From assembly GCA_016839805.1 (NCBI GenBank), contig JAEOTO010000038.1, forward strand, positions 1 to 35,924: DNA of 35,924 nt, written 5' to 3'. The notes under the pieces were generated by a model that saw only the letters and a list, made by a program, of their open reading frames with translations, was not told the origin of the DNA and did not search any database. Below, in pieces: positions 28,311 through 30,175 of this stretch. The translations under genes were made by a program, and so were the position numbers. The first letter of the stretch is position 1; every line of letters begins with the position of its first letter. The stretch comes from Candidatus Hermodarchaeota archaeon. Lineage in GTDB: Archaea > Asgardarchaeota > Hermodarchaeia > Hermodarchaeales > Hermodarchaeaceae.

Positions 28311-28511
28311 TTATTTGAGTTTCTTCAATTTTTCGTCAATTCTAGTAATCAAGTCTTGGTTACCAAGTCGTTCAAACATGGCTCGTGCCTGAGTATAGAG
28401 TTCCTTTGCTTCAGAAATTTCACCAATGGAAGCATGGTGATCAGCAAGTTCTTCGAGGTTCTCGCCCTTCCGTTGCACATAGGCGGTCAGTTGATCACTC
28501 GGTTTCGCCAT
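28311..28511 (-). CDS. Small helical TPR-like protein
   Basis: A......G...EA..LY.QA..MF..LG pattern; GGTG RBS. Confidence 0.7.
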   Translation of the reverse strand: MAKPSDQLTAYVQRKGENLEELADHHASIGEISEAKELYTQARAMFERLGNQDLITRIDEKLKKLK

Positions 28512-28595
28512 ATAAACACCATCCTATCCTTGCGTAATTGACTTATTTAATATACCTCGAGAGGACCTTATCCTTCAGGATGAGACTAATTCAAG

Positions 28596-28608
28596 GGGAC
28601 TTTAAATA
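28596..28608 (+). promoter_or_regulatory. Putative TATA box
   Basis: GGGAC-TTTAAATA just upstream of the structured RNA. Confidence 0.45.
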
Positions 28609-28630
28609 ATTCAGCGAGGAGTCAACTAGC

Positions 28631-28790
28631 GAGGTTCCGGTTAGTGGCTGAGAACCAAGGCCATCATGACTGGGCAACATCGCTGGACCAGCGAGTAGAG
28701 CCTGTGGACTAGTTGACAACGGTCGATGGTATGAAGCAGGAAACCTCGGTCTTCGGGTCGAGGTAGTTCACTGAACTTACCTGTGCGGGG
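28631..28790 (+). ncRNA. TnpB reRNA/omegaRNA-like structured RNA without tnpB
   Basis: CGCT-GGACC-AGCG; GCCTG-TGGA-hairpin-GAAG-CAGG-AA; ACCTCGGTC-TTCG-GGTCGAGGT; AGTTCAC. The GGAC loop can pseudoknot with GTTC. Confidence 0.75.
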
Positions 28791-28807
28791 AAATTGTAGG
28801 ATCGCTG

Positions 28808-30175
28808 TTAGGGTACCAAACGTGTGCGGTCTCGCGGGAAAAGAACGGCTTCGCGGATATTCGTATAACCAAGCATTTGCATCGTCAATCGCTCAACGCC
28901 GATGGCTAGACCGCCATGGGGTGGAGCGCCATATTGAAAGGGTTCGATGTAGAAGGCAAACGTTTTCGGATTTAATCCTGCCGCTTTTAATTGAGTTTTA
29001 AGTAGCTCGTATTGATGGATACGCTGACTGCCTGTAGTAACCTCCATCCCCCGATAAACAAGGTCAAACCCGCGAGTCAAGGATTCATCGCTTTCTAACG
29101 GCATCGTATAGAAAGGTCGTATGGCTGCTGGATAGCGGGTGAGAAAGAAGAACTCTTCACCGGATTCCTGCTTTACTAGCTGATGGAGCTTCTCCTCCCC
29201 ATCACTAGGAATATCAGTATCTGGAGGTAAATCAAGGCCTTCAGCTTTAAGCATCTCAACAGCTTCACGATATTCAATCCGCCGGATGGGGACACGTGGA
29301 ATTTTAATCTCAACTTCTAGTTGGTTTAATTCGTCCATACAACTCTTTTTCACCGAAGTAAAGGCGTCTAAAAGCAATTGCTCTTCAAGTTGCATAACAT
29401 CTTCTTCATCTTGAATCCAAGCCATCTCATAATCGAAGCTAGTGTATTCGTTCAAGTGCCGAGGGGTGTTGTGTTTTTCTGCGCGGTAAACGGGGGCGAT
29501 TTCATACACTCGATCAAATCCACCAACCAGGCACAATTGTTTGTAAAATTGTGGGCTTTGAGCGAGGAAGGCCTTTTTCTCAAAGTACTGTACTTCAAAA
29601 AGATCAGCCCCACCCTCCGTGGCAGTTGCGACAATTTTAGGGGTATGAATCTCACGAAAACCATGGGCTTCAAGGAATTTACGCATTTGAGCTATTGTGA
29701 AATGTTGAATTTTGAATAGCAACTGGGCTTCGAGACGGCGTAAATCCATAACACGGTTATCAAATCGAGTGGCGATATCGGCTTCAACTTTTCCAGATGT
29801 ATCTAAAGGCAGAGTGGAGGGTGCAGTATTAACAATCACAATCTGGTCAGGGATAAGTTCGACTCCTCGCCTAGCCTGTTTTTCTAGTTTGATTCGTCCT
29901 TTTACTGAAACCGCATATTCATTATCTAATTGGTCAAGGACCGAGAGTAGTTCAGGATCCGTCGTGGCGTGAGGAAGCGTACATTGAGTTAATCCCTCTC
30001 TGTCTCGAATAATTAGGAAACTGATTTTGCTTAATCGACGGATGCGTTGGACCCATCCTGTAATGATAACTTGTTTTCCTTGAATTTTTGGGGTCAATTC
30101 ATTGGAATAATGTGTCCGTTGAAGGGGTTTCATTCCGTGTTCTGAGGTCGATTTTGATTTGGGTGTGATTGTCAT
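28808..30175 (-). CDS. aspS: Aspartate--tRNA ligase (archaeal type)
   Basis: RTHYS, RDREG, TEGGA.LF, LAQSPQ.YKQ, RAE...T.RHLNE, SQRIH, PPHGG, FPRD. Start may be the later MKPLQ. Confidence 0.96.
   Translation of the reverse strand: MTITPKSKSTSEHGMKPLQRTHYSNELTPKIQGKQVIITGWVQRIRRLSKISFLIIRDREGLTQCTLPHATTDPELLSVLDQLDNEYAVSVKGRIKLEKQARRGVELIPDQIVIVNTAPSTLPLDTSGKVEADIATRFDNRVMDLRRLEAQLLFKIQHFTIAQMRKFLEAHGFREIHTPKIVATATEGGADLFEVQYFEKKAFLAQSPQFYKQLCLVGGFDRVYEIAPVYRAEKHNTPRHLNEYTSFDYEMAWIQDEEDVMQLEEQLLLDAFTSVKKSCMDELNQLEVEIKIPRVPIRRIEYREAVEMLKAEGLDLPPDTDIPSDGEEKLHQLVKQESGEEFFFLTRYPAAIRPFYTMPLESDESLTRGFDLVYRGMEVTTGSQRIHQYELLKTQLKAAGLNPKTFAFYIEPFQYGAPPHGGLAIGVERLTMQMLGYTNIREAVLFPRDRTRLVP

Follow-up and report, generated by a model that had tools for sequence, protein, structure and literature searches.

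A TnpB-type guide RNA scaffold beside aspS as the right half of a probable miniature IS200/IS605-family transposon in an Asgard archaeon

A TnpB-type guide RNA scaffold that stands without tnpB beside a housekeeping gene raises the question of whether it is a host gene recruited from a transposon or part of a mobile element. Such a scaffold is found in the window analysed here, the whole 35,924-nt stretch of contig JAEOTO010000038.1 (C29) of a Candidatus Hermodarchaeota archaeon (assembly GCA_016839805.1), next to the 3' end of aspS. An initial annotation of the window had interpreted it as a domesticated guide RNA gene of the core genome, acting in trans with a TnpB, TldR-like or Fanzor-related protein encoded elsewhere. 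The comparative evidence leads us to a different reading, to which we assign a probability of slightly below nine in ten: positions 28547-28771 constitute a 225-nt protein-less miniature IS200/IS605-family transposon (palindrome-associated transposable element, PATE, or MITE), which carries a TnpB omegaRNA, was derived from a tnpB-only insertion sequence (IS) by internal deletion and has a guide serving its own retention. In 5' to 3' direction, its anatomy comprises a TTAT motif, a left end (LE) with a hairpin, a TATA box, a spacer and the scaffold, which doubles as the right end (RE).

The scaffold forms the right half of the element (28631..28771, + strand) and terminates with AGTTCAC at 28765-28771, the transposon boundary. 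All elements of a TnpB reRNA scaffold that the initial annotation had placed in order at 28681-28771 are present, including a TCGCTG-GAC-CAGCGA hairpin (28680-28694), a CCTGT/GCAGG helix enclosing an inner hairpin (28701-28740) and a terminal 8-bp hairpin, CCTCGGTC-TTCG-GGTCGAGG (28743-28763). An alignment of 19 scaffold copies from six genomes yielded a consensus structure of 42 pairs in seven helices, with a closing helix that pairs GAGG (from 28631) with AGUUC (to 28769). In these copies, 96.6% of the cells are paired, compared with 27-44% when the partners are slid, and 14 of the 42 pairs show changes on both sides, which provides the covariation that the annotation had proposed to look for. 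None of 500 shuffles reached any of the observed pairing measures, a count that does not represent a probability, as the copies are related. Substitutions in the scaffold are either compensatory or result in G-U pairs, a pattern indicating that the scaffold is under structural constraint. Judged from these sequence comparisons, the object is a TnpB-type guide RNA (omegaRNA or reRNA) unit that lacks its own tnpB. Two further hairpins had been suggested at the 5' side. One of them, GGTTC/GAACC, was rejected, as most copies have GGTCC at this position and GAGAACCAAGG is an invariant loop; covariation supports a TTCCGGT/GACTGGG helix, which encloses the GC/GG pair.

Folding of the single window sequence also yields the named helices, but with an unremarkable energy (z -1.36) and ordinary z-scores on both strands; stability alone thus proves nothing, and the case is made by comparison. 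No Rfam family was matched at gathering scores across the whole window, nor at E-values up to 10 on 28450-28900. A covariance model (R1) built from the scaffold alignment assigned 150-166 bits to the ten copies of this genome, with the lowest score (150 bits) for the window copy, and also matched over its full length at the 3' ends of two tnpB genes of the same genome, on contigs C41 (83 bits) and C22 (69 bits).

The ten protein-less copies are located on nine contigs of the assembly (2.31 Mb, 50 contigs, 86.7% complete) and are 76-82% identical. All of them end with AGTTCAC and then diverge completely into unrelated 3' flanks, and none of the ten is preceded by a tnpB ORF. They are also alike across approximately 85 nt upstream of the scaffold as initially described. 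This upstream part includes the LE (28547..28600, +), which a profile built from the ten copies matches to the LE of a full-length IS on C41, and it is directly preceded by TTAT (28543..28546, +), a motif found in the same position at other copies and in the empty sites of a related genome and considered here as the candidate transposon-adjacent motif (TAM). The initial annotation had recognized the scaffold and the conserved box upstream of it, and missed the LE and the TTAT. The LE contains an imperfect subterminal hairpin, CTTATCC-TTCA-GGATGAG (28567-28584, +), for which 74% pairing across the 19 copies, compared with 32-53% with slid partners, gives weaker support than that for the RE hairpin, in which five of eight pairs show compensatory changes in the same alignment.

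Further miniature copies are present in congeners, and by exact-pattern matching the family was traced to Ca. Hermodarchaeum yapensis and other Promethearchaeota MAGs. The public runs that contain the DNA are marine sediment metagenomes, and no RNA run is listed among them. Among the contigs of four DNA runs, none joins across the element, and the identical right-end (filled) junction is present in one run from a different study. On the scaffold core (28658-28751), many unrelated sediment-metagenome contigs pile up in three of the runs (X1, X2 and X4), with a summed depth of up to about 570 compared with 12.8 for the host contig, so that the family is abundant in these communities beyond this genome.

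The nhmmer profile of the ten copies matches both ends of a full-length tnpB IS at C41:9285-10575. Its first ~70 positions correspond to the LE just upstream of the tnpB start (C41:10502-10569) and its last ~93 positions to the tnpB 3' end plus the RE (C41:9285-9377). As both ends as well as R1 match a tnpB IS, the miniature element is derived from such an IS. The C41 TnpB (P0001; 401 aa, ending ...KQEAPSFRAG) matches ISDra2 TnpB (8H1J, 8EXA) at E 7e-68 and the NCBIfam models IS200_TnpB and guided_TnpB. Inspection of the RuvC domain, which was confined to this protein, showed that the GIDVG, VESLN and DRDLNAA motifs (D/E/D) are kept. The TnpB encoded on C22 is 69% identical to that of C41, and these two P0001-clade proteins are the best candidates for a trans-acting nuclease, their omegaRNAs sharing the predicted structure of the scaffold. 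The C22 tnpB element (C22:21600-23200) has no recognisable left-end hairpin and directly follows a tRNA-like 3' end (...GGTTCGAATCCCGGAGCGGGCGCCA). In total, the genome encodes approximately 12 tnpB genes, all of which are located away from the miniature copies, and no tnpB was matched on the contig of the window, in line with the initial view that the nuclease for this guide RNA must come from elsewhere. No closer tnpB-linked omegaRNA or direct full-length parent was identified in the genus, where none scored above 88 bits with R1 compared with 100-166 bits for the miniature copies. P0001-clade TnpBs were not detected in the copy-bearing congeners G002, G005 and G012, all of which are incomplete MAGs.

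At positions 28632..28766 (+), the final ~45 codons of tnpB persist as a non-coding relic, homologous to the tail of the C41 TnpB (...SPREPRVGPVELSALAEASKQEAPSFRAG). None of the element copies has coding capacity. In the window copy, the relic frame reads ...RVEPVD*LTTVDGMKQETSVFGSR*, so that the initial description of a vestigial tnpB tail broken by a stop, with no tnpB left, is accurate. The stop (28710-28712) results from a C>T change relative to the CAG of most other copies, by which a C-G pair of the scaffold becomes a U-G pair. This change indicates that RNA pairing, not coding, is preserved in the relic tail.

Directly upstream of the scaffold, the element contains TTTAAATA (28601..28608, +), which we take to be a canonical TATA box in an archaeon. 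The box is located at about -30 to -23 relative to G28631, 16 of the 19 copies retain TTTAAAT, and the spacer between box and scaffold (28609..28630, +), which also contains the LE/RE deletion junction, is variable in sequence and fixed in length (22-23 nt in 19/19 copies). Conservation across the 19 copies accordingly differs by segment, with 84% for the scaffold, 79% for the TATA box, 51% for the spacer and 33% for the flank. The full-length C41 element has the same TATA box ~22 nt before the tnpB ATG, from which it follows that the deletion placed the tnpB promoter directly before the guide scaffold. The unit therefore probably has its own promoter, as predicted from the conservation of the TATA box and its appropriate distance from the scaffold. 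A scan for sigma-70 promoters and terminators, a model that is wrong for an archaeon, returned nothing relevant.

The element is inserted between aspS (28808..30175, - strand) and a 66-aa ORF (28311..28511, -). The aspS product is a non-discriminating aspartate-tRNA(Asn) ligase (NCBIfam NF003483, 589 bits; Pfam tRNA-synt_2 plus OB fold), and the gene is convergent with the element, its 3' end facing the RE, as noted initially. The 66-aa ORF has no match to a Pfam family and is conserved across the genus, with 72-86% DNA identity in 14/14 congeners. The aspS/66-aa ORF locus itself is kept in all 14 congeners and lacks the element in each of them; the initial assignment of the guide RNA to the core genome is not supported. 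In the closest congener (G013), in which the locus flanks are 86-88% identical to the window, the sequence ...GCCTAT|TGAACTTACCTGT... corresponds to ...GACTTAT[28547...28771]TGAACTTACCTGT... in the window, and the 3' side of the junction begins with TGAACTTACC (TAT|TGAACTTACC in G013). This clean empty site implies a scarless insertion of 225 nt directly 3' of TTAT without target duplication, and places it in the lineage of this Hermodarchaeum-like archaeon.

G013 is also empty at the sites of the copies on C8 and C4, with the junction right after TTAT, and thus at all three sites tested. TTAT precedes nine of the ten copies as well as the full-length C41 IS. The copy on C8 has TTTT (C8:13923-13926) where the empty site of G013 (contig C311) has TTAT, and a motif mutated in this way would block both re-cutting and excision of that copy. 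Other insertions are shared between species, as orthologous copies were identified in two pairs of genomes (G006:C60 with G002:C104, and G006:C14 with G005:C26), which implies that some copies stayed in place through speciation. The scaffold is 95% identical compared with 90-93% for the flanks in one pair, and 91.5% compared with 87.5-89% in the other. A linker of only 4 nt separates TTAT from the left-end core in the orthologous shared copies. The age of the insertions is therefore mixed, three of three tested sites of this genome being empty in G013 and two insertions being common to other species pairs.

With the aspS stop (28808) on one side and the start of the small ORF (28511) on the other, the element could in principle have as its main consequence a regulatory side effect on these neighbours, either because transcription leaving the element runs antisense to the 3' end of aspS or because the insertion disrupts the promoter that serves the 66-aa ORF. 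The start codon of this ORF is 32 nt from the insertion point, so that the element occupies its presumptive promoter region; the intergenic region is enlarged to 296 nt compared with about 60 nt in relatives, and the predicted transcript heads toward aspS. However, such an effect would be a by-product of insertion and leaves the conserved anatomy across copies unexplained, and we regard it as highly unlikely to be what the element is mainly about.

The guide position, TGAACTTACCTGTGCG (28772..28787, +, with an assumed length of 16 nt), is host DNA 3' of the element, and the annotation was right to let it start at 28772, immediately after the AGTTCAC that ends the scaffold at 28771. In the empty site of G013, this sequence is found immediately after the TAT. 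The guide is thus the original target beside TTAT, which makes it simply the insertion flank. A second genomic target, as expected for a guide in host service, was not identified: apart from its own flank, the window guide has no match in the genome with up to one mismatch, and its single match with two mismatches lacks TTAT. Likewise, the guides of all ten copies and of the two full-length elements have only chance-level near matches in the genome, none of them with TTAT.

These results bear directly on the interpretation as a domesticated host guide RNA, which would have a regulatory or defensive role and steer a TnpB, TldR or Fanzor-like protein to a target in the host or in a virus. A promoter-like box, an intact scaffold and the lack of a nuclease gene in the window are all compatible with it, and TldR-type domestication of TnpB is documented (10.1101/2023.11.30.569447). 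Yet the scaffold is absent from this locus in every one of the 14 congeners, with a precise empty site in the closest; it is one of ten dispersed copies that have unrelated 3' flanks, a transposon left end and the TTAT motif; and its guide is a flank. The initial annotation had itself named absence from relatives beside aspS and dispersed copies with unrelated flanks as observations that speak against domestication, and both were made here. No TldR-like or Fanzor-related link was found either, and we consider domestication extremely improbable.

Miniature elements of this kind, PATEs or MITEs with an omegaRNA, are known from the literature; what this locus adds is an Asgard (Hermodarchaeum-like) host and a compact promoter-guide layout. 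In Haloquadratum walsbyi, PATEs have been described that descend from IS605-type elements and in some cases include the C-terminal region of tnpB, and the same puzzle of a missing TnpA was raised there (PMC3119063). PATE-like elements that 'often encode omegaRNAs', with TnpB acting on them in trans, have been noted in Geobacillus stearothermophilus (10.1101/2023.03.14.532601). The family described here shares with PATEs the absence of an ORF, subterminal hairpins at both ends, insertion by a short motif without target duplication, the occurrence in several diverged copies, and a right end that contains the tnpB C-terminal region and hence the guide scaffold, with the proteins supplied in trans. 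It differs from them in its Asgard host, in the deletion that joins the tnpB TATA promoter to the first base of the scaffold at a fixed 22-23 nt, and in that a search of the genus yielded no matching TnpA. Compared with the TnpB omegaRNA of ISDra2 and the IS605 family (PMC8612924; 8H1J, 8EXA), the RNA is likewise encoded by the right end, in overlap with the 3' end of tnpB, the ~140-nt scaffold also ends at the transposon boundary with the adjacent flank as guide, and a T-rich insertion motif is present 5' of the left end. In contrast to ISDra2, however, the window element contains neither tnpB nor tnpA, the motif is TTAT instead of TTGAT, and no Rfam family matches the scaffold. With TldR, a nuclease-dead TnpB that functions as an RNA-guided repressor, the element has in common a TnpB-type guide scaffold used apart from transposition. 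TldR guides are fixed host loci beside tldR with targets in host promoters, whereas the window unit is mobile, multicopy, absent from relatives at its site and equipped with a guide that has no second genomic target.

In the favoured reading, an internal deletion removed nearly all of tnpB from a tnpB-only IS, so that the left end with its tnpB TATA promoter now adjoins the last ~141 nt, a right end equivalent to the complete omegaRNA scaffold. The resulting element inserted without a scar 3' of TTAT between aspS and the small conserved ORF. Based on the established IS200/IS605 model (PMC8612924; 10.1101/2023.03.14.532601), we infer how a miniature transposon of this design could operate. Transcription would start from the TATA box at about G28631 and yield an RNA consisting of the scaffold and about 16 nt of flanking DNA, which could be bound by a TnpB made elsewhere, with the P0001-clade genes on C41 and C22 as the best candidates. 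After excision of the element by a Y1 TnpA, the complex would cut the vacated joint of TTAT and TGAACTTACC..., and recombination with a sister copy would restore the element. As the guide equals the target at the vacated site, it would serve the retention of the element itself and not a host target.

The excision step requires a TnpA, and no Y1 TnpA (PF01797) was found in the organism's own assembly, which is 87% complete. Among the 14 congeners, a Y1 tnpA was identified in one (G013, contig C208), where it belongs to an unrelated IS without an R1 match. The lack of a matching TnpA in this genome and genus is one reason to ask whether the copies are inert PATE/MITE fossils, no longer transcribed, bound or mobilised, with a decaying structure inherited from active ancestors. 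The copies are also 18-24% diverged, the window copy scores lowest among them and the tip of its left end is altered, and in the two orthologous pairs the scaffold exceeds the flanks in conservation by a small margin only. Against this stand the strong contrast in conservation between segments (84% for the scaffold and 79% for the TATA box, compared with 51% for the spacer), the compensatory or G-U nature of the substitutions, and the intact TATA box and spacing in the window copy. Furthermore, the insertion either occurred after the divergence from G013 or was maintained from then on, all three tested sites being empty there. Overall, we consider an inert fossil unlikely, and favour a retention-serving miniature element.

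An unusual feature was observed at two sister copies of the window element, located at C4:7582-7813 and C41:21389-21620. There, the 8-9 nt directly after TTAT at the left end (AGTGTCCG and AGCCTCCAC, respectively) have the very same sequence as the opening 8-9 nt of the 3' flank, which is the guide. In the empty C4 site of G013 (contig C349) this target is present only once, indicating that it was truly duplicated and that the repeat replaces the normal left-end tip (the first ~10 nt). The repeat is absent from the other eight copies of the genome, including that of the window, and from 25 copies of relatives. Transposition of IS200/IS605 elements is not expected to duplicate the target, and the C4 and C41 repeats are an exception to the rule of no target duplication in this family. 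We conjecture that they are repair scars of a cut vacant site: a site cut by TnpB would have been repaired from a sister copy while part of the TAM-proximal stub was kept, with priming by microhomology within the left end. The further notion that TnpB acts in trans to service the miniature elements of an Asgard archaeon, whose genome bears natural footprints of RNA-guided cutting at C4 and C41, is speculative and, as it stands, doubtful.

The correction of the attractive domestication reading illustrates that a lone guide scaffold by a housekeeping gene is insufficient evidence, and that a claim of domestication requires further copies, a left end and empty sites to be excluded first. The locus provides an Asgard example of a transposon pared down to its ends, a promoter and a guide RNA, and an element of such design needs both TnpA and TnpB to be supplied from elsewhere. 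For work on archaeal TnpB, the family offers an omegaRNA model backed by covariation, TTAT as a candidate TAM, and nucleases that are candidate partners. If the C4 and C41 repeats are indeed footprints of TnpB cutting, the family would represent a field record of guide-RNA homing, and its retention or spread might continue with little or no TnpA.
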